A stretch of 38,759 nt of DNA from a virus (lineage: Duplodnaviria > Heunggongvirae > Uroviricota > Caudoviricetes), in IMG/VR virus record IMGVR_UViG_2706794681_000009, one strand, 5' to 3'. Position 1 is the first letter of the stretch; every line of letters starts with the position of its first letter. The position numbers and the translations under genes were made by a program. Shown here one piece after another: positions 1 to 38,670 of the stretch. The notes under the pieces are model-generated. The model was not told the origin of the DNA, made no database searches, and worked only from the letters and a program-made list of their open reading frames with translations.

Positions 1-121
1 TCGGTTTACGGGAAACGGTAAACAGGGCGGCGAATGCTCTGCCATCGGACGGCACCGCCGTTGCCGCGAATAGACTCGCCACCCCAAGAAATATTAATGG
101 GGTTCCCTTTGACGGGACGCA
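1..121. repeat. Left inverted repeat of invertible tail-fibre segment; positions 1-13 form the inner half of a gix-like site
   Basis: Reverse complement of 1-121 matches 1199-1319 with a single mismatch; window begins at the centre of the palindrome. Confidence 0.8.
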
Positions 122-362
122 GGACATAAACATCACTTCTGGTATAACACAGCAGGATGCGGATTCCCGATATATCCAGGATATCAGGCTGGGAGCAGAG
201 AACAGGCAGGTAATGTACGGTGGGGCATATTACTCTGCGTACGGTAATGTTATGGCAGGCCTGCAGATTGACAGTAAAGTTGATGCTTCAAACGATTTTA
301 TAGCATTCAGACCCCTGCAAAAATTAGTCGGAGGTACATGGATTACGGTATCTCAGTTATAA
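3..362 (+). CDS. Tail fibre protein, C-terminal variable segment (Sv), 5'-partial
   Basis: Frame open from window start to TAA at 360-362; encodes ANRLATPRNINGVPFDGTQDI crossover-type motif and GGTWITVSQL tip. Confidence 0.7.
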   Translation, partial: GLRETVNRAANALPSDGTAVAANRLATPRNINGVPFDGTQDINITSGITQQDADSRYIQDIRLGAENRQVMYGGAYYSAYGNVMAGLQIDSKVDASNDFIAFRPLQKLVGGTWITVSQL

Positions 363-413
363 ATAGTCAGTAAATAATATATTTTAAAACAGATTTATTT
401 CCAGGAGGATTTT

Positions 414-935
414 ATGGAACTAAAAAATATAACCCGTTATTATCCTGAAAATATGCCATATGGTAATAATGTTCAGTATTTCCAGAGTGAAGATGGTAAG
501 GATTTCTACGAATCCCTGCCATTATTCACCAAAAAATATAAACTTTGCATAACACCTGACAGCGGCGTTATCTGCTCAATATCACAGGACGCCTCGGCGC
601 TGTATCCTGCGGGGTTTTCTGTGGTTGAGGTCGATGAACTCCCTGAAGGCACGGATATTTCAGGAAACTGGAAGTTTGATAATGGCATAATCTCCCGTAT
701 TCCGGTTAACTACGCAAGAAAACTGGAAGCAATGCGCCAGTCATATCTTAATCAGGCATATGAAAAAATTAATGACTGGAGAACGGAGCTACAACTGGGC
801 ACCATCAGCGATGAAGACAGAGCAGCACTTACCCAATGGATGGCATACATCAGTCAGGTGAAGAAAATGGAACTACCCGCCATTAAAACAGAAGCTGAAT
901 TTAACGCCATTAAATGGCCTGAGCAGCCACAGTAA
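414..935 (+). CDS. Tail fibre assembly chaperone (Tfa/U family), 173 aa
   Basis: AGGAGG RBS 6 nt upstream of ATG; size, position directly after fibre tip, C-terminal ...AIKWPEQPQ resembling Tfa C-termini. Confidence 0.75.
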   Translation: MELKNITRYYPENMPYGNNVQYFQSEDGKDFYESLPLFTKKYKLCITPDSGVICSISQDASALYPAGFSVVEVDELPEGTDISGNWKFDNGIISRIPVNYARKLEAMRQSYLNQAYEKINDWRTELQLGTISDEDRAALTQWMAYISQVKKMELPAIKTEAEFNAIKWPEQPQ

Positions 936-939
936 TAAA

Positions 940-957
940 GAAGGCCGGAAGGCCTTC
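940..957. terminator. Bidirectional hairpin (GAAGGCC-GGAA-GGCCTTC) between convergent tfa and Sv-prime
   Basis: Perfect 7-bp stem with 4-nt loop located between two convergent stop codons. Confidence 0.45.
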
Positions 958-966
958 TGAATATCA

Positions 967-1317
967 TTATATACTTGCAGCCGTCACCCATGCTCCATTT
1001 AACAGATACTGCAACGGCCGGTAATACACGCCGCCGACGTTATCTGCCGTATTCTTACCGACATCCTGTACTTTAATTCCGGTAAGAACATTGCCGCCCC
1101 CCAGATTCAGATCCCAGCTTTCCCATGTTCCGGGCATATGTGCGGTCACCGACCCCAGTCTTATGGCGGTTACTGTTCCTGATGAGATAGTGATATCCTG
1201 CGTCCCGTCAAAGGGAACCCCATTAATATTTCTTGGGGTGGCGAGTCTATTCGCGGCAACGGCGGTGCCGTCCGATGGCAGGGCATTCGCCGCCCTGTTT
1301 ACCGTTTCCCGTAAACC
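967..1317 (-). CDS. Alternative tail fibre C-terminal segment (Sv-prime), expressed only after inversion
   Basis: Minus-strand frame continuous from the gix crossover; first ~40 codons identical to Sv (inverted repeat), then diverges, ending NGAWVTAASI. Confidence 0.6.
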   Translation of the reverse strand, partial: GLRETVNRAANALPSDGTAVAANRLATPRNINGVPFDGTQDITISSGTVTAIRLGSVTAHMPGTWESWDLNLGGGNVLTGIKVQDVGKNTADNVGGVYYRPLQYLLNGAWVTAASI

Positions 1318-1319
1318 GA
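1199..1319. repeat. Right inverted repeat of invertible segment
   Basis: Matches reverse complement of 1-121. Confidence 0.8.
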
Positions 1320-1331
1320 GGTTTTCAGGAA
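1306..1331. other. gix-like recombination site (gixR): TTCCCGTAAACCGAGGTTTTCAGGAA
   Basis: Imperfect 26-bp palindrome at the repeat boundary immediately upstream of gin, closely resembling gix/hix crossover sites. Confidence 0.6.
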
Positions 1332-1396
1332 AGCCAGGATTAACTCTGTTTTATTCCTCATGCGACAATTCCGGCTTTTTATAATAAGGAAATCGT

Positions 1397-1969
1397 ATGC
1401 TGATTGGGTATATCAGGGTGTCAACAAATGACCAGAATACGGCGCTACAAAGAAATGCGCTGGAATGTGCAGGATGTGAGCTGTTTTTCGAAGACAGAAT
1501 AAGCGGTAAGACAAGGGAGCGTCCCGGACTTAAACGCGCATTAAAGCGACTCCGGCCAGGGGATACCCTGCTGGTCTGGAAACTGGATCGCCTTGGACGC
1601 AGTATGCAGCACCTTGTCCTTTTAACAGAAGAACTCCGGCAACGCGGCGTTAACTTCCGCAGCATTACGGACAATATTGATACATCCACTCCCATGGGAC
1701 GTTTCTTTTTCCATATAATGGGCGCGCTGGCGGAAATGGAGCGGGAACTCATTATTGAACGTACACGCGCGGGTCTTGCTGCTGCCCGTGCTCAGGGGCG
1801 TCATGGCGGCAGACCTCAGAAACTGACAGAGAAAGAGCGGGAGCAAATCGCCCGTTTGCTGGCTAATGGCGAGTCCCGTAAACAAATCGCACTGATATTT
1901 GATATTGGCCTTTCCACCCTTTATCGTTATTTTCCTGCCTCACCAGCTCCGTCACCAAAAGTACCGTGA
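1397..1969 (+). CDS. gin: Gin DNA invertase (serine recombinase, Hin/Gin/Pin/Cin family), 190 aa
   Basis: MLIGYIRVSTNDQNTALQRNAL... N-terminus with catalytic Ser; near-identity in pattern to Mu Gin; TATAAT and AAGGA upstream. Confidence 0.9.
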   Translation: MLIGYIRVSTNDQNTALQRNALECAGCELFFEDRISGKTRERPGLKRALKRLRPGDTLLVWKLDRLGRSMQHLVLLTEELRQRGVNFRSITDNIDTSTPMGRFFFHIMGALAEMERELIIERTRAGLAAARAQGRHGGRPQKLTEKEREQIARLLANGESRKQIALIFDIGLSTLYRYFPASPAPSPKVP

Positions 1970-2054
1970 CGCTTTTTTGAATTTCCGCAAAACACATATT
2001 TTTCAGCGGTCGCTATTCTGACTCTGTTTAATTCAGAAACAGGCAGAAAAGACG

Positions 2055-4109
2055 ATGTCAGACTCCAAGTGGAAAATGCTCTCCGCCATGCCCGGAGAGT
2101 TTTCAGTCAAGGTTGCCGGTGGCACGGTGGCATTTATTGAAAGCCCTTTCCGCCCTTCGGGTAATAAAGGGGGGATCACCTTCGCAGACTGCGTGATCCG
2201 CTTCAGCACGAAAGAGCCATTATGGGTAATGCCGGTATCCGGTAATCCCAGTGCAGAAATCACCAGTTCAGGCGTGACTGGCATCATTCCAATCACATCT
2301 GACGTGGCCGGAACGCTCACGCCCTCCGACTGGAATGCACCGGATAACGCCGGGCCTTCCGGTAGCACGAATGGCAGCAGTTCAGAGCCGGAATATTACT
2401 TTGTTGTCATTCTCGCGGGTCAGTCAAATGGCATGGCCTACGGCGAGGGGCTGCCGTTACCGGATTCGTTTGACCGCCCGGACCCACGCATTAAGCAACT
2501 GGCACGCCGCAGTACGGTAACGCCCAACGGTACGTCGTGTACATACAACGACATCATTCCGGCAGACCACTGCCTGCATGATGTTCAGGATATGAGCGGG
2601 ATAAACCACCCGAAAGCTGATCTGGCAAAAGGCCAGTACGGGACTGTCGGTCAGGGGTTGCATATTGCCAAAAAACTGCTTCCCTATATCCCACAGAATG
2701 CCGGGATACTTCTGGTGCCCTGTTGTCGTGGCGGGTCAGCATTCACCACTGGAGCCGACGGCTCATTCAGTGAGGCCAGCGGTGCTTCCGCTGATTCTTC
2801 ACGCTGGGGGGCCGGTAAACCTCTGTATCAGGACCTGGTAAGCCGCACCAAAGTCGCGCTGGCGAAAAACCCGAAAAACAAACTTCTGGCTGTGGTCTGG
2901 ATGCAGGGAGAGGCAGACCTTGCCTCAGGAAGCCAGCAGCATAATAGTTTATTCACGGCCATGGTTCAGCAGTTCAGAACTGACCTGGCTCCGCTTGCTG
3001 CGCAGTGCGTGAGTGGAAATGCCACCACGGTGCCGTGGATTTGCGGTGATACCACGTATTACTGGAAAAACGCTGGCACCGATAAATATGAGGCAGTATA
3101 CGGTGGCTACAAAGGCAAGGAAGCACAGAAAATTTTCTTTGTACCGTTCCTGACGGATGAGAATGGACAGAGCACGCCAACGAATGCTCCGGCGGAAGAC
3201 CCGGATATTGTGGCTGTCGGGTATTACGGTGCAGCATCCCGAACCCAGGGCAGTTTTGTTTCGACACAGCGTGACAGCCATTTCAGCTCATGGGCACGCA
3301 GGGGCGTCATTTCAGACCGTCTGGCCTCAGCTATTATGCTCCATGCAGGGCGCACGGCTGAACTGATGCGTGGGCAGACCGTGACACCACCGGATGAGAA
3401 GCCGTCACCTGATACACCATCAAAACCGTCCACGCCACCCGCAGACACCACGACGATGAGTACGCTATTTGCTTACCGGGCATCTGAGTCTGAAGGACGG
3501 TTGACACCACAGGGTTGGGCTGCCGGAGGTGGCAAGGCTCAAATCGTGGATGATGCCGGAGCCAGCGGGGGTAAGGCAATGAAACTGACCAAGGAAACAG
3601 GAAGAGCCCCCTGGTACCTTGAGCATGATGCTGGTAATGGTGCGGACCTGCTGGGTAAAGGTGGTCTTGTCAGTTGTCGTTTTAAACTCGATGGCGCGCT
3701 TACGGCTAATCAGTACGCACTGGCGCTGTACTGGCCGGTTTCTGCCCTGCCGCAAGGGGTTACTCTGGAAGGAAATGCCGGTCATAACCTGCTGGCATCG
3801 TTCTACGTACAGAGCGATGCCACAGACCTTAACGTGATGTATCACAAAGGAAACACGGCGCAGAACACGAAGCTGGGGTCATTCGGCGCATTTAATAACG
3901 AATGGCATACGCTGGGCTTCCGTTTTGCCGGTAACAACAGTATTGAGGTGACGCCGGTCATTGATGGTAAGGACGGGACACCATTCATGCTGTCGCAGTC
4001 TCCGGTCGGCACGTTTACGGCAGACAAGTTGCGCGTGACCGATATCACTAAAAATGCGACTTACCCGGTACTGATTGACAGTATCGTGGTGGAAGTGAAT
4101 AACGCGTAA
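2055..4109 (+). CDS. SASA/SGNH-type carbohydrate O-acetylesterase (NanS-p-like) with Pro-rich linker and C-terminal lectin-like domain, 684 aa
   Basis: Motifs ILAGQSNGMAYGEG and VVWMQGEADLASG; linker PPDEKPSPDTPSKPSTPP; beta-rich C-terminal ~230 aa; no signal peptide. Confidence 0.6.
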   Translation: MSDSKWKMLSAMPGEFSVKVAGGTVAFIESPFRPSGNKGGITFADCVIRFSTKEPLWVMPVSGNPSAEITSSGVTGIIPITSDVAGTLTPSDWNAPDNAGPSGSTNGSSSEPEYYFVVILAGQSNGMAYGEGLPLPDSFDRPDPRIKQLARRSTVTPNGTSCTYNDIIPADHCLHDVQDMSGINHPKADLAKGQYGTVGQGLHIAKKLLPYIPQNAGILLVPCCRGGSAFTTGADGSFSEASGASADSSRWGAGKPLYQDLVSRTKVALAKNPKNKLLAVVWMQGEADLASGSQQHNSLFTAMVQQFRTDLAPLAAQCVSGNATTVPWICGDTTYYWKNAGTDKYEAVYGGYKGKEAQKIFFVPFLTDENGQSTPTNAPAEDPDIVAVGYYGAASRTQGSFVSTQRDSHFSSWARRGVISDRLASAIMLHAGRTAELMRGQTVTPPDEKPSPDTPSKPSTPPADTTTMSTLFAYRASESEGRLTPQGWAAGGGKAQIVDDAGASGGKAMKLTKETGRAPWYLEHDAGNGADLLGKGGLVSCRFKLDGALTANQYALALYWPVSALPQGVTLEGNAGHNLLASFYVQSDATDLNVMYHKGNTAQNTKLGSFGAFNNEWHTLGFRFAGNNSIEVTPVIDGKDGTPFMLSQSPVGTFTADKLRVTDITKNATYPVLIDSIVVEVNNA

Positions 4110-4253
4110 GCAGGATAAAAAAATGCCGCCGGTAAGGGAAAACAAGAAACCGGCGGCAAAAAGATCGTTATATCCAAAGCAAAAAATGCAGTGCACCTTT
4201 TTACCTAACAGATATTACCGGTGTCAACACCATGTCAATAATTGGGAGGGATA

Positions 4254-4436
4254 ATGACATTTTTACAGCTTATTTTATTGTATTTCTGCACGGCAGTATG
4301 TGCGTTATATCTGGTGAGTGGTGGTTATAAGGCCATCAGAAATTATGTTCGCCGCAAAATTGAGGACGCAGCAGCTGAAAAACTCAGTAAAACAGCGCAG
4401 GTAACTCCGCTCCCAAAAGACCCGACCCAGCCCTGA
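4254..4436 (+). CDS. Small predicted membrane protein (~60 aa, one N-terminal TM helix)
   Basis: GGGAGGG RBS 4-10 nt upstream of ATG at 4254; hydrophobic FLQLILLYFCTAVCALYLV segment. Confidence 0.4.
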   Translation: MTFLQLILLYFCTAVCALYLVSGGYKAIRNYVRRKIEDAAAEKLSKTAQVTPLPKDPTQP

Positions 4437-4471
4437 TTGCAGGGCTTTATTCCCGCATAAGGAGGATATAC

Positions 4472-4726
4472 ATGCCAGAAATTAAAGGCACCGTCACTGA
4501 AGACCTGGTAAAACAGGCACTGTATTCCGGTGAAGTAAATAAGTTGCTGAAAGCGCAGGTCCGCAAGGATTTTGAGGCACAAATCGACACTTACGTTGAT
4601 GAAGTGCTGGCAAAACTTATTGGGCCAGCAGTTGCGGCCAGTGATGCTGATAATGAGCCGAAAACCGACGCGCAGCCAGAGCAACCAGACCCGGCTCAGC
4701 CCGGAACTGACAGTACCATGATGTAA
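4472..4726 (+). CDS. Hypothetical protein, 84 aa, acidic Pro-rich tail
   Basis: AAGGAGG RBS 6 nt upstream of ATG. Confidence 0.45.
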   Translation: MPEIKGTVTEDLVKQALYSGEVNKLLKAQVRKDFEAQIDTYVDEVLAKLIGPAVAASDADNEPKTDAQPEQPDPAQPGTDSTMM

Positions 4727-4893
4727 CAATACAAACCGGTGGTGTCCTCTGCCGGTTTGACACTAATGAAAACATCTTTGCCGCTATCCAGCCATATGTA
4801 ATCGCTGGATAGTATTTCGTATTCAGAAATATAGCTGCTTATGGAGCAGTCAATCCTGCTTCCCCATCCGGGCAGGCAAATGAACCGGTATCA

Positions 4894-5187
4894 TTAGTCC
4901 GATTCACGCTTTTGTAGAATCGTTCCCAGAATGCTATACAGCTCATTAGCCTGTTGCTCCATCATTGAGACGGAGGCTATACGGTGCAAAGTGATTTCAG
5001 GAGGTGGCACACCTCCATCTTCTTGCTGTGGAGGAAAAACATAAGATTTAATAAAAAAGTTGAAGCATATGAACTCTCCCGCACTCGAACTGTATTTGCA
5101 GGCATCTGAATAATCGGAAAAATAATCATTATAGATTTCCGCATTTTCAATCATTTTTCGATTTCTCGTCGTTACATGATTGTCCAT
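4894..5187 (-). CDS. Hypothetical protein, 97 aa, AT-rich gene divergent from com-mom
   Basis: AAGAGG RBS upstream; only long ORF in an AT-rich block. Confidence 0.35.
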   Translation of the reverse strand: MDNHVTTRNRKMIENAEIYNDYFSDYSDACKYSSSAGEFICFNFFIKSYVFPPQQEDGGVPPPEITLHRIASVSMMEQQANELYSILGTILQKRESD

Positions 5188-5310
5188 AGCAGCCTCTTAC
5201 GCTGGCAATTAACCAATTGACTTCTATAAATTAGTTGATTTGTTTGCTTTGCGGTATTCAAATGTACAATCATTCAGCACTTATGCGTTACAGCACCGTT
5301 TAAAATTAGT

Positions 5311-5396
5311 GATCAAACTCATAAATTTTCGCTAATGACATTTCGTGTTATTTGTTGTATCAATTAAATAAATCAAATCGATCGTTTTTGTCGATC
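5311..5396 (+). promoter_or_regulatory. mom upstream regulatory region with three GATC (Dam) sites
   Basis: GATC at 5311, 5380 and 5393, the last two within the palindrome AATCGATCG-N-CGATCGATT, just upstream of com. Confidence 0.5.
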
Positions 5397-5443
5397 GATT
5401 GAGTGATAAAGATATCAACAACAAAGCAGGAGGTTATGCGGCC

Positions 5444-5644
5444 ATGTATCGAAACATACGGTGCCGACATTGTAACAAGCTACTGGCACGAGCCAGCTTC
5501 AGTTATCTGGAAGTTAAATGTCCGCGCTGTAAAACCCTCAATCAAATCACATCTCAGAGCGCCACAGAGCACCCCACATACACAAGGAAATCCTGTCGTG
5601 GGGAACAGAAAGCAAGTTACATCCCGTATCATCAGCACGCCTGA
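5444..5644 (+). CDS. com: Com, zinc-finger translational activator of mom, 66 aa
   Basis: CRHCNKLL...CPRCKT zinc-finger pattern as in Mu Com; AGGAGG RBS 9 nt upstream; overlaps start of mom frame. Confidence 0.75.
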
Positions 5645-6335
5645 ACTTATTCACTATAACGACAATATCGTCGGTTATGGCTCCCGTGAGTTACGGGTTG
5701 AGACAATAAGTTGCTGGCTGGCCCGGCTGGTCGTCGTCAATAAACATTACAGCCATCGTTTCGTAAATAATTCCTACCTTCATCTGGGCATATTTTCAGA
5801 ACGGGAGCTGGTTGGCGTAATGCAATGGGGTTATGCCCTTAATCCAAACAATGGTGCACGCGTCGTAACTGGCACGCAGAACCGCGAATATATGGAGCTT
5901 AACCGGTTATGGCTGCATGACTGTATGCCGAGAAACTCCGAATCAAGGGCAATCAGTTACGCGCTCAAACTAATCAGACAACTTTATCCGCAGGTGCAGT
6001 GGGTTCAGTCGTTTGCAGATGAGCGTTGTGGCTGTCTTGGTGTCGTGTACCAGGCAAGCAATTTTGATTATGTAGGCAGTCATGAAACAACATTCTATGA
6101 ACTTGATGGCGAGTGGTATCACGAGATTTGCAAGAATGCAATCAAACGAGGAGGACAGCGAGGTGAACATCTGCGGGCTAATATCGACAGAGCCAGTGTT
6201 CATAAATTCCGTCAGTTTCGTTACATCCGGTTTCTGGACAAGAGAGCCAGAAAACGCCTTAACACAAAGCTATTCAAAGTCCAGCCTTACCCAAAACCAC
6301 AAACAGTTAAAACTGGTTTGAAAGAGAGTGAATGA
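5598..6335 (+). CDS. mom: Mom DNA-modification (anti-restriction) protein; start codon uncertain (GTG at 5598 proposed)
   Basis: Long frame overlapping com 3' end, position at phage right end after com; no ATG in frame near com stop, AAGGA precedes GTG 5598. Confidence 0.55.
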
Positions 6336-6407
6336 ACGCTTAAAAACTCATTCTAAAACTCAAAAGAAAAGCGCCGATTTAGTATCAAATAAGTTGCGTA
6401 TCGGCGT

Positions 6408-6657
6408 NNNNNNNNNNNNNNNNNNNNNNNNNNNNNNNNNNNNNNNNNNNNNNNNNNNNNNNNNNNNNNNNNNNNNNNNNNNNNNNNNNNNNNNNNNNNN
6501 NNNNNNNNNNNNNNNNNNNNNNNNNNNNNNNNNNNNNNNNNNNNNNNNNNNNNNNNNNNNNNNNNNNNNNNNNNNNNNNNNNNNNNNNNNNNNNNNNNNN
6601 NNNNNNNNNNNNNNNNNNNNNNNNNNNNNNNNNNNNNNNNNNNNNNNNNNNNNNNNN
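6408..6657. other. Assembly gap (run of 250 N)
   Basis: Literal N characters. Confidence 1.
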
Positions 6658-7039
6658 TCGCCAGGGCATTAACGTCAGCGGGACCAAGACTGTTTTTTGT
6701 GGCAAGCGTCCCCAGACCAAGATAACCACGGGCCAGACGCTGGGCCTCCGCACCGGCATCAGCAATTTCTTTCAGGTTATTTTTCCGGGAAAAGGCATTC
6801 GCAGCGATAATGGCTTTAATGGACAGCGTAAGCTGGTTTAACTGCGCCTTATCCGGCTGAATACTGGCTTCAGCCAGAATATTCAGCAGTTCGGCCTGGA
6901 GAATATTCAGCCAGTCCTGACCAATCCAGCTGATACCTTTTTGTCCGTCACCTTCGGTAAACCAGGTGGTGGTATTACTCTGCGCCGGTGCCAGCGCAGG
7001 CATATTCGCCACGCCGGAATTATTATCAACATGAAACAT
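6658..7039 (-). CDS. Tail fibre protein, N-terminal constant part, 3'-truncated by gap
   Basis: Starts MFHVDNNSGVANMPALAPAQ..., overlaps stop of upstream baseplate gene (TAATG); runs into N gap. Confidence 0.6.
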
Positions 7040-7599
7040 TAAATAGTCTCCTCTTCATGGCTGTTTGCATAAACGTAAATAAACGTCTGCCATGCAGGCT
7101 TATAACGGTTCAGAATACATTCCAGCGCACCGCCTTCATAAATACGCAGCGGCGTGAGAATATCATCCAGCACATTCATATTCCGGTAGCCGGTTTCACT
7201 GTTAATCGTGACAATACTGACCCACTGCGAATCCGGTGAGGGCTGAATGTCAATCTGATAACCAAACTCCGCCGCAAACCGGATATAAAATTCACGGTTC
7301 AGCGAGGGCTTCATCCGGTATTTATTTCCGGCATAACGCTGTCGCTCCGTGAGGGTGGCTCCGGCCATATCACACTCGGGAAGCCCGAGATAACGCTCCC
7401 AGTCTTCCAGCAGCAGGCGCGACGTGTCAGGGAAACGCTCGGCAAGCAGCTGTTTACCCGTCCAGGATACACGCGCTGTCGAATGACTGAGGCCCAGACA
7501 TAATGATGCCAGTACGGATGACGGACGCTTGTCCCATGCCAGCCCGTCAGGCAGTAACTGCAACAGGGCGCGCTGATGCGGGGTCAGGGTTACAGCCAT
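7039..7599 (-). CDS. Baseplate/tail protein (Mu gp48-like, YmfQ/DUF2313-like)
   Basis: Synteny between baseplate J-like gene and tail fibre; 186 aa. Confidence 0.55.
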   Translation of the reverse strand: MAVTLTPHQRALLQLLPDGLAWDKRPSSVLASLCLGLSHSTARVSWTGKQLLAERFPDTSRLLLEDWERYLGLPECDMAGATLTERQRYAGNKYRMKPSLNREFYIRFAAEFGYQIDIQPSPDSQWVSIVTINSETGYRNMNVLDDILTPLRIYEGGALECILNRYKPAWQTFIYVYANSHEEETI

Positions 7600-8672
7600 G
7601 TGATTTCTCCTACCGTCAGCAGCTCACTGTCTCCCGCCTGAACTGACGTCAGCGGACTGCGCACTTCAAAATCCTCCAGATTTTTCACCCCTGCCACCGC
7701 CCGCCAGAAAGACGACGGCAGAACCAGACCGCCGGGCCGGGATTCGTTATACAACAGGTCGGTCAGCGCCTGTTTTACGGCCGCCTGATTCTCCGGTGTT
7801 TTCGGGATGATCCTGATGCTGAAGGGCACCGGCTTATTGGTCAGTTTAAACACGGTCACCGTCGGCCCCAGAGGCTGTCCGACAGGCTGGCCGGTCGCCG
7901 GATCATCATGACTGCGGATATAATCCGCCACCCGCTGAACATCACCGTCACCGGGGAAAATATCCGGGTTATTATCCTGAACAAACGTTACCCCCACGCT
8001 GCCCGCCTGCGGCCATTCCGGGCGGCACCATGCCCGCGTCACGCCCGGCACTTCACGCGCCCAGCGTTCAAAATCATACTGCGTGCCGCCGGACGGTGGA
8101 TTCTGCACCCGGAAAACCAGACGGGAAAGCAGCTCCGGCACGGTTTCCACATCCGCACCACCGGTGATCCCCGTTCCGGTCACCGTGGCCGTCTGGTTGA
8201 TCCCCGCCTGCGGTGTGATAAATGTCAGTTTTGTCCCTGCCGGGGCATTCCCCGCACGACCGGCACTTTCGGCTTCCACACTGACATTCAGCGTACCGGC
8301 CTTACCGGTCAGGGAGGTGGTGATACGGTAAACCACGCCATCACTTCGCTGGAGAAGCACACCTTCCTTGATCCCCGCATCCGTGGTCAGCATCAGCTGA
8401 ACCGGCCCGTCCCCCCGAGAGGCAGGCTTACGCATGACGCCCCAGAATGCACAGTGTTTCAGCAGTTCGGCTTCATCGGCTTCGGTCGGGATGATCTGAC
8501 GCGCAATCCAGGCCAGATGCTCATGCTCCTGAGCAGATAACCCTGCCTGAGCGTAAGCAATGGCATTCAGGGTGGTTTCATTCACACCCGGCTGCGAGCC
8601 GGGCAGGCGCTGGCTGATATCCTGCTGTGTCTGCGTGATTAACTGTGCCAGCGGTAAAGGCTGATAAGGCAT
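7590..8672 (-). CDS. Baseplate J-like protein (Mu gp47-like)
   Basis: 360 aa, position and composition typical of baseplate J family. Confidence 0.7.
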   Translation of the reverse strand: MPYQPLPLAQLITQTQQDISQRLPGSQPGVNETTLNAIAYAQAGLSAQEHEHLAWIARQIIPTEADEAELLKHCAFWGVMRKPASRGDGPVQLMLTTDAGIKEGVLLQRSDGVVYRITTSLTGKAGTLNVSVEAESAGRAGNAPAGTKLTFITPQAGINQTATVTGTGITGGADVETVPELLSRLVFRVQNPPSGGTQYDFERWAREVPGVTRAWCRPEWPQAGSVGVTFVQDNNPDIFPGDGDVQRVADYIRSHDDPATGQPVGQPLGPTVTVFKLTNKPVPFSIRIIPKTPENQAAVKQALTDLLYNESRPGGLVLPSSFWRAVAGVKNLEDFEVRSPLTSVQAGDSELLTVGEITWL

Positions 8673-15208: not shown

Positions 15209-16711
15209 TCACAAAATGAAACGGATCTGCGCGGCCATGAAGCGGAACTGGTTAACCAGATCCGGTGTACACATCACATCCAGACGGTTACGGTCTTTTG
15301 TGTTGCGCTCCACGAGCAGATTCTTTTTAAAGGTGTCCAGATTTTCGACCAGTCCCAGATCCACCCATTCTTCCCCCAGCGAAATTAACTGAAGTTTCAT
15401 GATCTCCGGTGTCACGATATTCTGACCGGCACGAACGGGCGTCCCGTCATCAGCCAGTTTATGGCGCGGAAAACGCTGCGTGATAAAGGTGCGCAGGGAA
15501 TAACGCAGATATGACAGGGTGTAGATGGTTTCCACATCCAGATAGCTGGGATCGATTTCGCCGTATGCATTCTGACGGTACATCGTCACCTGACGTTCAA
15601 TCTGCACCACATCCGCGGCCGCGACGGTCACCGTGGACATGCCGGTATAAAGCAGGCTGTTTCGCTCTTCCCGCGTCAGACGATCCGGTGCTTCAGGTGC
15701 CATACGGGCAGGCAGCGCCAGTGTCTGTAATGGTCGGGCCGGATCCGTTGACAGGGAGGGCGCACAGACCGCACAAATGGAGGCAGCCCAGACATAATCC
15801 GGCTCTGGTGCTTTAGGAATAGAAGTGCAGGTAAACAGGAAGTCATTACGGGATTCACCAAAACTGGTTGCCGTACCGAAGGTGCCGGTATGCGCCATCC
15901 AGACCATACCGTCCGACATTTTTACCGGTCCCCAGCGTTTCAGCAGTTCATCCGCCAGAATTTTGAGATTTGCCGCATCCTTATAGGGCATGACGATGTA
16001 GTTGTACTGACGATTCCCCATCCCTGAGACGCTACGGGTGATATCGGGGTTTGTTGCCTTCTGTGTTGGCGCGACGAGCTCCAGCGTAAGACCGGCCGGT
16101 GTAGTTTCACCGTCATAATAGTTCACCCGTAAATCATGAGCTGAGCATTCACCGATAAAGCGGGCGTTAACCCCCATGCTGCCTTTAAGTCCTTCAGCAT
16201 TATCACCACTGACTTCAGCTGCGATAGCAGTGAATGGCGCATCAGTGTCAGCGTTAATGACCTTAGCCAGCTCTTCCACAAGCTCTTTACCTTTTTTCCC
16301 CTTACTGACGGGCAGGAGGTAACGGCGACCGCCGATGTAAACACTTAACACCCCGTCTGCCAATGCTGTTCCAATGATATTCATCACGCATGCCCTGGAC
16401 TGACCTGTTCCAGCCCCCTGTGCAATGGCATATAACTCTGTGTCAGGGTTAATGGCGATAAATTCCTCTACCATCAGTGCAATCATGGAACCTCGCCCCC
16501 AGAGTTCTCTTGCTTGTGAAGCTCGGGTAATACGTACTGGTACATCAAGCTGACCGCGCCCCTGAATGGTAGTGTCTTTCATTGCAGCCTGACCAAACAA
16601 CAGTACCGCCTGACGCTGTGGTGGAGTGCCGGTCACGGCCATTGAATTATTGATTTCAATCTGTACCAGCGGAATGCGATTGTTATCGCCGATATAATCA
16701 AAGTTAATCAT
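15209..16711 (-). CDS. Contractile tail sheath protein
   Basis: 500 aa, MINFDYIGD... sheath-like; followed by tube gene. Confidence 0.8.
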   Translation of the reverse strand: MINFDYIGDNNRIPLVQIEINNSMAVTGTPPQRQAVLLFGQAAMKDTTIQGRGQLDVPVRITRASQARELWGRGSMIALMVEEFIAINPDTELYAIAQGAGTGQSRACVMNIIGTALADGVLSVYIGGRRYLLPVSKGKKGKELVEELAKVINADTDAPFTAIAAEVSGDNAEGLKGSMGVNARFIGECSAHDLRVNYYDGETTPAGLTLELVAPTQKATNPDITRSVSGMGNRQYNYIVMPYKDAANLKILADELLKRWGPVKMSDGMVWMAHTGTFGTATSFGESRNDFLFTCTSIPKAPEPDYVWAASICAVCAPSLSTDPARPLQTLALPARMAPEAPDRLTREERNSLLYTGMSTVTVAAADVVQIERQVTMYRQNAYGEIDPSYLDVETIYTLSYLRYSLRTFITQRFPRHKLADDGTPVRAGQNIVTPEIMKLQLISLGEEWVDLGLVENLDTFKKNLLVERNTKDRNRLDVMCTPDLVNQFRFMAAQIRFIL

Positions 16712-35382: not shown

Positions 35383-37470
35383 TCAGGCCAGCGGATCACT
35401 TTCTTTTAATTTCGCTTCGAGCAGTTGCAATCCCCGCTGGAAATTACGCTCGTATTCTTCATCAGGTTCATCGTCAGCGACCGGTTGCTGAACGGTCACC
35501 GTATTACCCACAGGGCGGTATATGTTTTCCAGCCAGGGCTCCTGCGGCTTGTGCTCCAGCACGTTGACAACCTCATCCTCGGCATCACGGATTTTTTCCT
35601 CTGCGCGTTTACGCATGCCTTTAAGGCGCTGCTGCTGTTTGTAGTATTCCGCGCTGACAGGGAAGGCTTCGCGTTTATTGCCGTCCCATACCGCCTCGCA
35701 AATCACGCTGCCATCCGGGCGGCGCACGGTAATTCGTTCGGCATCATGAATGTCATAGCTGATAAGTACCTTACGGCCATGCTCGTCACGCAGCTCGGGC
35801 GCGTAGTAAATATTATTCAGCCAGCGTATTTCACAGCGTCTTACAGGGCGCTCCACCATCGGCCGGAACATATCCCGCAGTTCAACATCGGACAGCCATT
35901 CAATTTCCGTGTCCTCTTCCGCCAGGCGTTTTTTTCTGAACTCCGCCGGGCTGTAATGTTTACCGTTCGGCTTCATGGGTAATTCATCGTGCGGCCGGTT
36001 GTTGTACCACTCAACACCGTCACGAATGGCATCAATCAGTTCAGACCAGGACGGTAAATCACGCATCGCTGACTGCTGCCGGGCGTTCAGCCGTTTGCCC
36101 TGTTGCAGGGCACTGAATGCCGAGCGTAAATCGCGGTTGGTTTTACGTAACGTCTCGCGATCTGCTCCTTTCCCGAAATAGGTGCGGTATTTACGGGCTA
36201 TGCGCATCGGTAATGTGCGGTTAAGCCGTTCGATAATGCCCCGTCCCTGCGGATTACCGGCAATCCCTGTCGGGTGATTAATCCCCAGTCGTGGCAGTAT
36301 CCCCACAATCTCCTTATCCAGGACGTCGGCGGTTTCCCCGGAGCCATTATCCGAGTAATACAGAAACGGTTTGCCATGATGGCGAATACCGTGCTGTATG
36401 GCACCGGCTACGGCGAAAACATTTTCAGCCAGGTCAAGGCTCCAGCCCACCACAAAGCGCGTGCCACCGTCGATAACAAAGGTCACTTCCGGTGCGAATG
36501 GCCGCCCGTGAACCGGGTGCGCGCATTTCAGCTTCATGCCGTGACCGTCACCAATCCAGACATAATTCACCGGCATTCTGGACCAGTCGCGGCGCGTGAA
36601 TCCCTCAAGCTGACGGTATTCACTGCCAGTTACCCGGCCTTTTTGTTTCACCACTTCCGGCAGTTTCTTCATTGCGCGGCGAATGGTGTCATAAGAGGGC
36701 ATGATATCGAGCATATAAGGCTCATCAGCGTGCCGGTGCTGCCATTCAGCAACAAAATCCTCGTAAGCCTCGGTCATTGGTCGGCCGTTTGACTGGCGAT
36801 ACTGCGCCAGAAATTCGGGCAGCCAGTTAATATCTTCGGCTTTTATTTCCTGGCGTTTACCCGGTGCCAGTAAAAGCAGGCGTTCAGCGGCGTTCTGTGC
36901 CTTGTTAAAGGCCGCAATCCAGCGTTTCAGCGTGATTTCACTCAACGCGCGGCTGTTTCCCTTTTTGGCGTTCGCCGTCTCAACCATTGCCACAATGCGC
37001 TCGTCCAGTTGTGATCGTGCCAGGCTGTTAACGAGGAACCGGATAGCTTTAGCGCAGCTGAAACCGGGTTGTTGCGTGAATTTCAGCACCTCACTGACGA
37101 TCGCAATGCGTGCGTCTGCCACCTGGCGCTGGTTTTCAGTCAGGGCATTGAGGCGTTCGACCATCAGTTGTGGTGATCCGCGATATGCCTCCACCGCATC
37201 AACCACGGCAGACGAGCGTCTGGCCTTTGTCACCACCGGAGCCGGTGATTCATCGGCTTTTTGCGTCATCAGTTGCAGGGCATAACGTTCGCGTAATGCC
37301 TGCTGTGTCACTTCAGGTAAACAGTCAATGCTGTATTCAAAACCTTTAGCGCCTTTCTTGCGGCGTCTGCTGGTTTCGCTGGTTGCATACTTCCTGATTG
37401 AATAGCGAACGCCTTGCTCCGTTCCCGGCATCCCCGGTAATCCAACCAGTTCTTTAACTGAAGCAAACAT
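35383..37470 (-). CDS. A: MuA-like DDE transposase
   Basis: 695 aa; N-terminal DNA-binding region and central DDE core; position between ner and B. Confidence 0.9.
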   Translation of the reverse strand: MFASVKELVGLPGMPGTEQGVRYSIRKYATSETSRRRKKGAKGFEYSIDCLPEVTQQALRERYALQLMTQKADESPAPVVTKARRSSAVVDAVEAYRGSPQLMVERLNALTENQRQVADARIAIVSEVLKFTQQPGFSCAKAIRFLVNSLARSQLDERIVAMVETANAKKGNSRALSEITLKRWIAAFNKAQNAAERLLLLAPGKRQEIKAEDINWLPEFLAQYRQSNGRPMTEAYEDFVAEWQHRHADEPYMLDIMPSYDTIRRAMKKLPEVVKQKGRVTGSEYRQLEGFTRRDWSRMPVNYVWIGDGHGMKLKCAHPVHGRPFAPEVTFVIDGGTRFVVGWSLDLAENVFAVAGAIQHGIRHHGKPFLYYSDNGSGETADVLDKEIVGILPRLGINHPTGIAGNPQGRGIIERLNRTLPMRIARKYRTYFGKGADRETLRKTNRDLRSAFSALQQGKRLNARQQSAMRDLPSWSELIDAIRDGVEWYNNRPHDELPMKPNGKHYSPAEFRKKRLAEEDTEIEWLSDVELRDMFRPMVERPVRRCEIRWLNNIYYAPELRDEHGRKVLISYDIHDAERITVRRPDGSVICEAVWDGNKREAFPVSAEYYKQQQRLKGMRKRAEEKIRDAEDEVVNVLEHKPQEPWLENIYRPVGNTVTVQQPVADDEPDEEYERNFQRGLQLLEAKLKESDPLA

Positions 37471-37888: not shown

Positions 37889-38434
37889 ATGAACAAGCAA
37901 ACAACAACATCTCTTTCTTTTCCTGGTGGTAGAAAAGAAAGCATTGCTGAGCGTCTGAAAAGGCTGATTGGCTCCCGCAGCGTCAGAGCTGCAGCAAGAG
38001 ATTGGGGGCTTTCATTTTCAACACTAAACAATTATCTGTCTCGTGGCACTGAGCCATCCTTAAGTGTCGCCCTTCAGATTGCGTCTATCGAAGGAGTAAG
38101 TGTTGAGTGGCTATGTGGATTCAGTGATGCATCACAAGTGAATCGGTGTGAGATCAAGGAAAATCAAGATGAAAGCAAGAAGATAATTATGACGATTATC
38201 AGCGCACTTGATGAAAAAGACTTAGAGCAGCTATCGAAAAATTTGGTTCTGAATGGAGCCAAGTACTTAGCTCGGTTGTTAGAGCCTGAAAATCAAGATC
38301 TAATCCGCTTAGAAGGAAGGAAAAGAATAGCTGCATTACAGCTTGAAGGTATGTCTGACGAACGCGTCAGAGAGATTTTGGAAGAAACTGAGAGAAGTCG
38401 CAAATCTAACGCGGTAGAACCAAAAGCGGGTTAA
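37889..38434 (+). CDS. c: Repressor c-like lysogeny regulator
   Basis: 181 aa, N-terminal HTH (LSFSTLNNYLSRG...), divergent from ner at phage left end. Confidence 0.6.
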   Translation: MNKQTTTSLSFPGGRKESIAERLKRLIGSRSVRAAARDWGLSFSTLNNYLSRGTEPSLSVALQIASIEGVSVEWLCGFSDASQVNRCEIKENQDESKKIIMTIISALDEKDLEQLSKNLVLNGAKYLARLLEPENQDLIRLEGRKRIAALQLEGMSDERVREILEETERSRKSNAVEPKAG

Positions 38435-38508: not shown

Positions 38509-38670
38509 GTATCAAATGAGTTGCCGATTTTATAATAAATGACTAATTATTGCACAATCGGTATCAAATAGACCTTATCCGCACATCTAGCCATCACCTG
38601 TTTTATTTCAGTATCTTACAGGTGATTTCACCTCCTTTCACTAAACCCCTTGTCGGTATCAAATGATTCA
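38509..38670. repeat. Phage left-end region with three transposase-binding-like repeats (consensus CATTTGATACCG on minus strand)
   Basis: Copies at 38509-38519, 38561-38570, 38656-38666; terminal TTCA-3' (5'-TGAA on minus strand) at 38670. Confidence 0.5.

Follow-up and report, generated by a model that had tools for sequence, protein, structure and literature searches.

Invertible tail-fibre segments are textbook examples of programmed host-range variation. The C segment of P1, turned over by the serine invertase Cin, exchanges the C-termini of the tail fibre and supplies each end with an assembly gene of its own, and in carotovoricin Er, a tailocin of Pectobacterium, a short inversion reportedly swaps the C-terminal end of the fibre and changes the killing range (Nguyen et al. 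2001). In the G segment of Mu (AF083977), which spans ~3.06 kb, a constant part, Sc, is joined to one of two inverted C-terminal parts of roughly 320-335 codons, and the two are accompanied by the assembly genes U and U'. SfMu carries a Mu-type switch as well (KP010268; PMC4406740), a symmetric segment of ~3 kb in which a pair of tfa genes (SfMu_50 and SfMu_51) goes with the two fibre ends. The P segment of the Escherichia coli prophage e14, 1,797 bp long and served by Pin, likewise exchanges tail-fibre C-termini by means of a serine invertase and holds two tfa genes, tfaP and tfaE (PMC12529663), but it acts on another fibre family (lambdoid stf) and through recombination sites of other sequence. 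The inversion of Mu-type prophage fibres is known already: Goldberg et al. (2014) confirmed it in the Mu prophage of enteropathogenic E. coli (EPEC) E2348/69, alongside a three-repeat P2-like inversion locus of EPEC (PMC4272514), and Milman et al. (2023) confirmed by long reads a 1.47-kb inversion in a Mu-S-like fibre gene of CP066032.1 (PMC9881135). The subject here is the first 1,319 bp of IMG/VR record IMGVR_UViG_2706794681_000009, a Mu-like prophage stretch of 38,759 nt that is called the window and to which all coordinates refer. As judged from sequence comparison, positions 1-1319 are very probably a Gin/gix invertible host-range-switch segment of an E. coli Mu-like prophage. What is new is its layout, in which a single tail-fibre assembly gene (tfa) accompanies two alternative fibre tips; no description of a one-tfa Mu-type invertible segment was found in the full-text literature searched.

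The segment lies in the same place as the Mu G segment, after the baseplate genes gp47 and gp48 and before gin and com/mom, and follows the same logic of a constant Sc completed by one of two inverted C-terminal parts. The gix sites are near-identical to those of Mu and share the TC/GA core, Gin is 74% identical, Sc ~47% identical, the two tips align to those of S and S', and the tfa product is homologous to U. The differences are of size and content: the segment measures 1.32 kb, its variable parts comprise 119 and 116 codons, a shaft of ~240 residues is absent, one chaperone gene stands where Mu has two, and ~3.4 kb of cargo is added between gin and com. The sequence-only reading, which had described a minimised Mu-G-type tail-fibre segment with gix and Gin, is borne out in this respect. 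The features of the switch are as follows.

1-14: left gix site, truncated where the window begins; TC (1-2) and the inner half-site GGTTTACGGGAA (3-14)
1-124: left inverted-repeat arm, coding for 42 residues common to both fibre variants
3-362, plus strand: Sv, C-terminal 119 codons and stop (360-362); tip type A, 77 unique residues
414-935, plus strand: tfa, sole tail-fibre assembly chaperone gene, 173 aa; Pfam Caudo_TAP, E 4.8e-19
939-958, minus strand: GC-rich hairpin terminator, lying between the stops of tfa and Sv'
967-1317, minus strand: Sv', alternative C-terminal 116 codons and stop (967-969); tip type B1, 74 unique residues
1196-1319: right inverted-repeat arm, pairing with 1-124
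1306-1331: right gix site, TTCCCGTAAACC GA GGTTTTCAGGAA
1397-1969, plus strand: gin, DNA invertase of 190 aa, intact; Pfam Resolvase and HTH_7
6658-7039, minus strand: Sc, first 127 codons of the constant N-terminal fibre part, beyond a gap of 250 N and directly after gp48

Measured from core to core, the segment is bounded by arms (1-142 and 1178-1319) that form a 94% complementary inverted repeat, within which 1-124 pairs with 1196-1319 save for a single, synonymous mismatch at position 38; the 121-bp repeats of the sequence-only reading are real and somewhat longer than it had put them. Read inward, both arms code for the same 42 residues, GLRETVNRAANALPSDGTAVAANRLATPRNINGVPFDGTQDI (about 40 had been claimed), after which the frames part into the tips of 77 and 74 residues. 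Only two arms are present, and the locus is not one of multiple inversion, with more than two sites and more than two variants, such as the shufflon, Min of p15B or the three-repeat locus of EPEC. Close relatives mostly have arms of 78-87% identity over 126 nt, with a perfect stretch of 16-37 nt adjoining the core, and among the close relatives compared the long near-perfect repeat is peculiar to the window sequence, where it reflects gene conversion or possibly the collapse of a consensus. In most relatives, too, the Sv arm bears the residues ATPRN where the Sv' arm bears ANAHT (71-101 and 1219-1249 in the window), while both window arms carry ATPRN and the relative L015 has ANAHT on its Sv arm. 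This shuffling of ATPRN and ANAHT shows that the arms undergo some gene conversion or homologous exchange, additional to inversion by Gin.

The window opens, at bases 1-2, on the central TC of the left gix site, whose outer half, TTATCGATAACG, falls outside the window together with the end of Sc. The full site is read in L001, a copy of the locus in the closed genome of E. coli DLI.5a (NZ_CP103972.1, 3.516-3.523 Mb), as TTATCGATAACG TC GGTTTACGGGAA, and with it the segment is seen to be flanked by two 26-bp, imperfectly palindromic inverted sites of identical 2-bp core. Of the gix-like sites proposed by the sequence-only reading, the one next to gin (1306-1331) is complete, and the left one is broken off at its core, where the window begins. 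The right site is the sole match to the gix-type pattern in the window, with 0 matches in 100 shuffles, and at up to three mismatches the window still held that one match and the cut left site. Mu has TTATCCAAAACC TC GGTTTACAGGAA and, at gixR, TTCCTGTAAACC GA GGTTTTGGATAA, with which the half-sites share 10/12 and 11/12 positions, the cores being TC and GA as in Mu. The adjoining invertase matches Resolvase (E 1.6e-51) and HTH_7 (E 4.9e-15), and its alignment to Mu Gin (4M6F; E 2.5e-88) runs without gaps over residues 1-184 and thus places the catalytic Ser9 (YIRVS) and Met114, both kept, the roles of which have been described (PMC3575834). In the L001 copy gin is frameshifted and a deletion reaches from the DUF2730 gene into gp48, yet the fibre switch has been kept.

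In Mu and Hin, the 5' end of the invertase gene contains a Fis-dependent recombinational enhancer. In the window, third-codon identity over gin codons 1-30 is 0.57 against Mu (0.27-0.47 elsewhere in the gene) and 0.77-0.97 against relatives (~0.5 elsewhere), a rise seen with Mu, SfMu and three relatives, and by comparison the first ~90 nt of gin is the likely position of a putative Fis-dependent enhancer. A strict regular expression for Fis sites gave 0 matches in the window and 0 in Mu as well. Apart from the enhancer, for which the test was indirect, the segment has the defining features of a Gin/gix switch; it departs from the classical G, C and P segments in lacking their paired chaperone genes.

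Proof that the segment turns over comes from complete genomes. Five complete E. coli genomes contain, at full length, the window-state junction Sv'-gix-gin used as a query, and 18 contain in full the flipped junction Sv-gix-gin, a reconstructed query, with identities of 98-100% across both states and many at 100.0%; three of these genomes (E. coli DLI.5a, TOE17 and AST46) hold one copy in each state. Four closed E. coli genomes carry the segment, at its full 1,319 bp and with identical gene content, at 99.3-99.5% identity, and a fifth carries it at 95.9%. The single fixed orientation that the sequence-only reading had held out as a danger to its case is therefore not what is seen. Comparison of L001 with L002, which is in the flipped state, locates the exchange.

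L001: gix on the Sc side TTATCGATAACG TC GGTTTACGGGAA; on the gin side TTCCCGTAAACC GA GGTTTTCAGGAA
L002 (flipped): gix on the Sc side TTCCCGTAAACC GA CGTTATCGATAA; on the gin side TTCCTGAAAACC TC GGTTTACGGGAA

The outer halves stay in place, TTATCGATAACG with Sc and TTCCTGAAAACC with gin, and everything inside the core is swapped, so that the breakpoints sit exactly on the central TC/GA dinucleotide. The occurrence of both states in closed genomes, taken with these breakpoints, shows the inversion to be real and site-specific. The same pair of loci shows a constant Sc outside the segment and one or the other of two opposed C-terminal parts inside it, as in the G segment, the complete fibres being Sc-Sv of 296 aa in L001 and Sc-Sv' of 293 aa in L002.

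Recombination of the general, homologous kind between the two long arms, rather than Gin, would also produce two orientations, and the 124 nt common to the window arms and the movement of ATPRN and ANAHT between arms in some relatives are what such a process would leave. It is nevertheless a very improbable source of the two states, since L001 and L002 exchange at the 2-bp core while their arms keep internal polymorphisms, an intact Gin adjoins the site, and L003 and L023 retain the architecture with a perfect repeat of 16-22 nt, about that of a gix half-site. With relatives' arms only 78-87% identical and their perfect stretch so short, it is the gix sites that matter and not the long repeat. 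By the mechanism proposed, Gin dimers would bind the two 26-bp sites and turn the segment over by strand exchange at the central TC/GA, a step that by analogy with Mu would need host Fis bound to the enhancer in the first ~90 nt of gin. One state fuses Sc (~177 codons) to Sv, which would be co-transcribed with tfa; the other fuses Sc to Sv', where the transcript would end at the hairpin just past Sv', and tfa is left antisense.

Several points weigh against this account of the segment as a Gin-driven switch. In the window itself the segment is not joined to Sc, being separated from it by the N gap and wrongly oriented; the evidence for inversion comes from complete genomes and not from reads of this sample; the raised identity over gin codons 1-30 could reflect recombination mosaics instead of an enhancer; and the counts of orientations are not phylogenetically independent. 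The state with Sc-Sv' and antisense tfa outnumbers that with Sc-Sv-tfa by 18 to 5 among the genomes and by 11 to 4 among IMG/VR loci, about three times commoner in assembled lysogens, the genomes not being independent of one another.

The fibre built on either arm is a shortened relative of Mu S. The 296-aa fibre of L001 aligns to Mu S (5YVQ) over fibre residues 1-198 and 229-294, Sc being homologous to Mu S residues 1-191 and the last ~70 residues of the fibre aligning to Mu S once more, and from this alignment to the N-terminal part and the tip only, the fibre may be described as Mu S without its shaft. The alignment of the tips to known ones, a check that the sequence-only reading had proposed, gave a clear result: the Sv tip resembles that of Mu S, and the Sv' tip resembles that of Mu S' (8JU3), matches the short-fibre tip of phiTE (9CUY_c; E 1.6e-9) and shares 46-47% identity with the SfMu_52 tip. 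The source papers of 9CUY and 8JU3 hold nothing on chaperones. The Sv and Sv' tips are homologous to each other at ~30% identity (~31% over the last 42 residues), and all tips share a C-terminal motif, Y/F-R-x-[LIV]-Q...N/G-x-W. The two tips presumably bind different receptors.

The departure from Mu lies in the chaperone gene. The tfa product, with 69 bits against PF02413 (cut-off 22) and E 4.2e-16 against Mu U (5YVQ_B), belongs to the Caudo_TAP family, and its gene follows directly on its fibre, 51 nt past the Sv stop on the same strand and behind a strong Shine-Dalgarno sequence of its own; family and position suggest a chaperone role. The Tfa profile, run over the whole window, found no match besides tfa, and the closed E. 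coli genomes contain no hidden copy of U'. Since 31 nt separate the tfa stop from the Sv' stop, no gene can fit between them. The paired S-U and S'-U' arrangement is thus absent from the window and the closed genomes alike, each with one tfa, as the sequence-only reading had maintained for the window; its further remark that tfa would be on the wrong strand after inversion also stands, tfa then being antisense to the fibre transcript, and its worry that a U' might emerge on reassembly proved groundless. Between the two stops lies the terminator hairpin, AGAAGGCC TTCC GGCCTTCT followed by TTTATTA on the minus strand. A matching hairpin, flanked by runs of A and T, occupies the same spot in L003, L004, L005 and L023, and the tfa-Sv' hairpin terminator is kept in every lineage examined.

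The same order of tip, tfa, hairpin and tip, with a single tfa, recurs in L003 (85% nucleotide identity), L005 (83%), L004 (77%) and L023. The one-tfa layout was found in 15 IMG/VR loci and, in a longer form, in Citrobacter braakii ATCC 51113 (L028, 5001-8871; IMG/VR L073). The C. braakii locus has an Sc 74% identical to that of the window, a gix-like site inside the fibre gene (5819), gin downstream and a single tfa on one arm, but its fibre has 472 aa, its span from Sc to gin is 3.3 kb, its tfa product has 229 aa, and it is the arm with the B-type tip, currently silent, that carries tfa, the opposite of the window. Mu- and SfMu-like loci, with an Sc ~47% identical, have two tfa genes, and an intermediate locus, L066, pairs tfa with a second, 196-aa chaperone-like gene of another class. 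The Tfa profile is blind to this class, and L066 at first looked to be single-tfa; the blindness is without consequence for the compact segments, where a further gene would not fit, and for L028, where the fibre stop is followed at 61 nt by that of tfa. The recurrence of the layout shows that the single-tfa asymmetry is no accident. Across the five compact lineages the position without tfa is always filled by a B-type tip, which is B1 for the window and B2 for the remaining four. The tfa gene itself is divided in its conservation: its N-terminal half is 75-100% identical across lineages in which the adjacent tips are of types A, C and D, and its C-terminal half is variable and follows neither the neighbouring nor the distal tip type.

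The sequence-only reading had allowed that the second tip might be a decaying remnant, and one might equally suppose that the flipped state became a non-infective 'off' state when U' was lost. The lack of U' and the chaperone gene that follows each relative of the tip elsewhere are in keeping with both suppositions, which are nonetheless highly unlikely. The tips without tfa have intact reading frames in all lineages, the sole two truncations coming from one low-quality IMG genome with frameshifts in gin and the DUF6645 gene as well, and high-quality genomes show no frequent frameshifts. The dN/dS of these tips is 0.06-0.14, and nowhere near 1, for four B2 sequences whose dS exceeds 1 and is saturated; such values mark the tfa-less tip as selected coding sequence, and on these and the intact frames the decaying remnant was rejected. 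The position has moreover been refilled with B1, B2 and Citrobacter tip types without the gain of a chaperone, and a dedicated terminator is kept after Sv'. In L005, an in-frame fossil of the C-terminus of another tip, LINGSWRTAGSA*, is found at 2884-2925, directly past the stop of the tfa-adjacent tip, and is the scar of a tip replacement by recombination.

How a selected tip is folded when its chaperone gene is antisense admits of two main answers. The favoured one, held at just short of an even balance, is that Sv' folds without co-transcribed Tfa, so that one state would present a naked tip and the other a Tfa-capped one. The fuller version, in which Sv' is a naturally Tfa-independent member of an otherwise chaperone-paired tip family and the switch toggles between capped and naked fibres, is put forward tentatively, as a possibility rather short of even. 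It is opposed by the relatives of the B tip in POP15, PVP-SE1, vB_Apl-pPE4, 19-1-2 and SfMu, each of which is followed directly by a gene of the size of tfa (so annotated in four of them, and listed as hypothetical in 19-1-2), and these neighbours make an intrinsically chaperone-free fold less likely. The same neighbours would suit an economical layout in which one Tfa serves both tips, tfa being expressed in the Sc-Sv' state from an unrecognised promoter that would read inward from the gin side or lie in the silent arm. The N-terminal half of Mu U is reportedly the fibre-binding domain, a point ascribed to North et al. 2019. The conservation of that half of tfa beside three tip types, with a C-terminal half that tracks neither tip, makes a single Tfa fitting both tips plausible, and the C-terminal motif shared by all tips and the ribosome-binding site of tfa are also consistent with it. 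The shared chaperone is nevertheless rather doubtful. Consensus scans found no sigma-70-like promoter upstream of tfa on its strand and no inward promoter in the gix-gin spacer, though activator-dependent late promoters could escape such scans, and that spacer is not conserved between lineages. The conserved hairpin, in turn, would insulate the arms transcriptionally while tfa is antisense in the Sc-Sv' state, and the constant B type of the tfa-less position in the five compact lineages also speaks against a chaperone common to both tips.

The wider interest of the layout lies mainly in the test that it offers, in nature, of whether fibre tips depend on a chaperone. In Mu, e14 and SfMu each fibre end has an assembly gene of its own, whereas here one chaperone accompanies two selected tips, a form kept throughout a clade of Mu-like prophages of E. 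coli and by one from Citrobacter, and the layout poses in testable form the question of when Tfa proteins are required. If Sv' is indeed Tfa-independent, the two tips of ~75 residues, homologous and borne by the same Sc in the same phage, would be a matched natural pair that could reveal what makes a fibre tip need Tfa. The minimal fibre of Sc, 42 residues and ~75 residues is in addition a small scaffold for tip swapping. The one-tfa switch is common in E. coli genomes and is routinely mis-annotated: the silent arm, in truth a functional alternative, exon-like cassette, is entered by annotation pipelines as a pseudogene ('phage tail protein, missing N-terminus').

The invertible repeat also breaks and mis-orients draft assemblies, of which the window is a case in point. 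Two pieces are mis-joined in it.

6408-6657: 250 N, placed between the two wrongly joined pieces

The order in closed E. coli genomes, which is the reverse complement of the sequence from 6658 onward, then 147 nt, then 1 to 6407, then 56 nt of the prophage right end, shows that 1-6407 is wrongly oriented; the N run hides those 56 nt of the right end as well as the last 147 nt of Sc with the outer half of gix. The piece of Sc in the window matches L001 8066-8853 at 99.7%. The misorientation is most likely a scaffolding error provoked by the invertible repeat, and several IMG/VR draft contigs likewise end at this repeat. The exact junction of attL with host DNA had no match in the genome and viral contigs searched, and the N run may be either a gap or a mask. 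A genuine large inversion joining attR to Sc was considered and found unlikely, the attR end having no gix-like site, and it is further disfavoured by the window starting exactly where the orientation states diverge. That the whole feature, or the lack of U', could itself be an artefact of the scaffold is suggested by the same start on the crossover core, by the gap and the wrong orientation of 1-6407 relative to 6658-38759, and by arms more alike than those of relatives, as the collapse of a consensus could make them. Even so it is scarcely credible, given that five closed E. coli genomes have the same segment and 18 have it flipped, and that closed genomes have no U' and the same lack of space between the tfa and Sv' stops.

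The remainder of the window is that of a Mu-like prophage.

37889-38434, minus strand: repressor
35383-37470, minus strand: transposase A
7590-8672, minus strand: gp47, baseplate
7039-7599, minus strand: gp48, baseplate (Phage_Mu_Gp48), adjoining Sc
~5399-6335: com/mom, with the N run between it and Sc
2055-4109, 4242-4436 and 4472-4726, plus strand, and 4894-5187, minus strand: cargo open reading frames

The ~3.4 kb of cargo between gin and com/mom is found in neither Mu nor SfMu. It codes for a 684-aa protein with a sialate-O-acetylesterase-type domain (SASA) and DUF6645, for small genes annotated as DUF1378 and DUF826 in L001, and for a reverse-strand open reading frame, and may serve to modify the receptor or to convert the lysogen. 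Repeats of GGTATCAAA cluster at both ends of the prophage (38560-38568 and 38655-38663 in the window; in L001, the attR part at 15407-15462). The window holds 3 of them against 0.2 expected, 2 at the left end, and they are probably transposase-binding sites. Beyond the left end of the prophage, at the right edge of the window, stand ~68 nt of host DNA.

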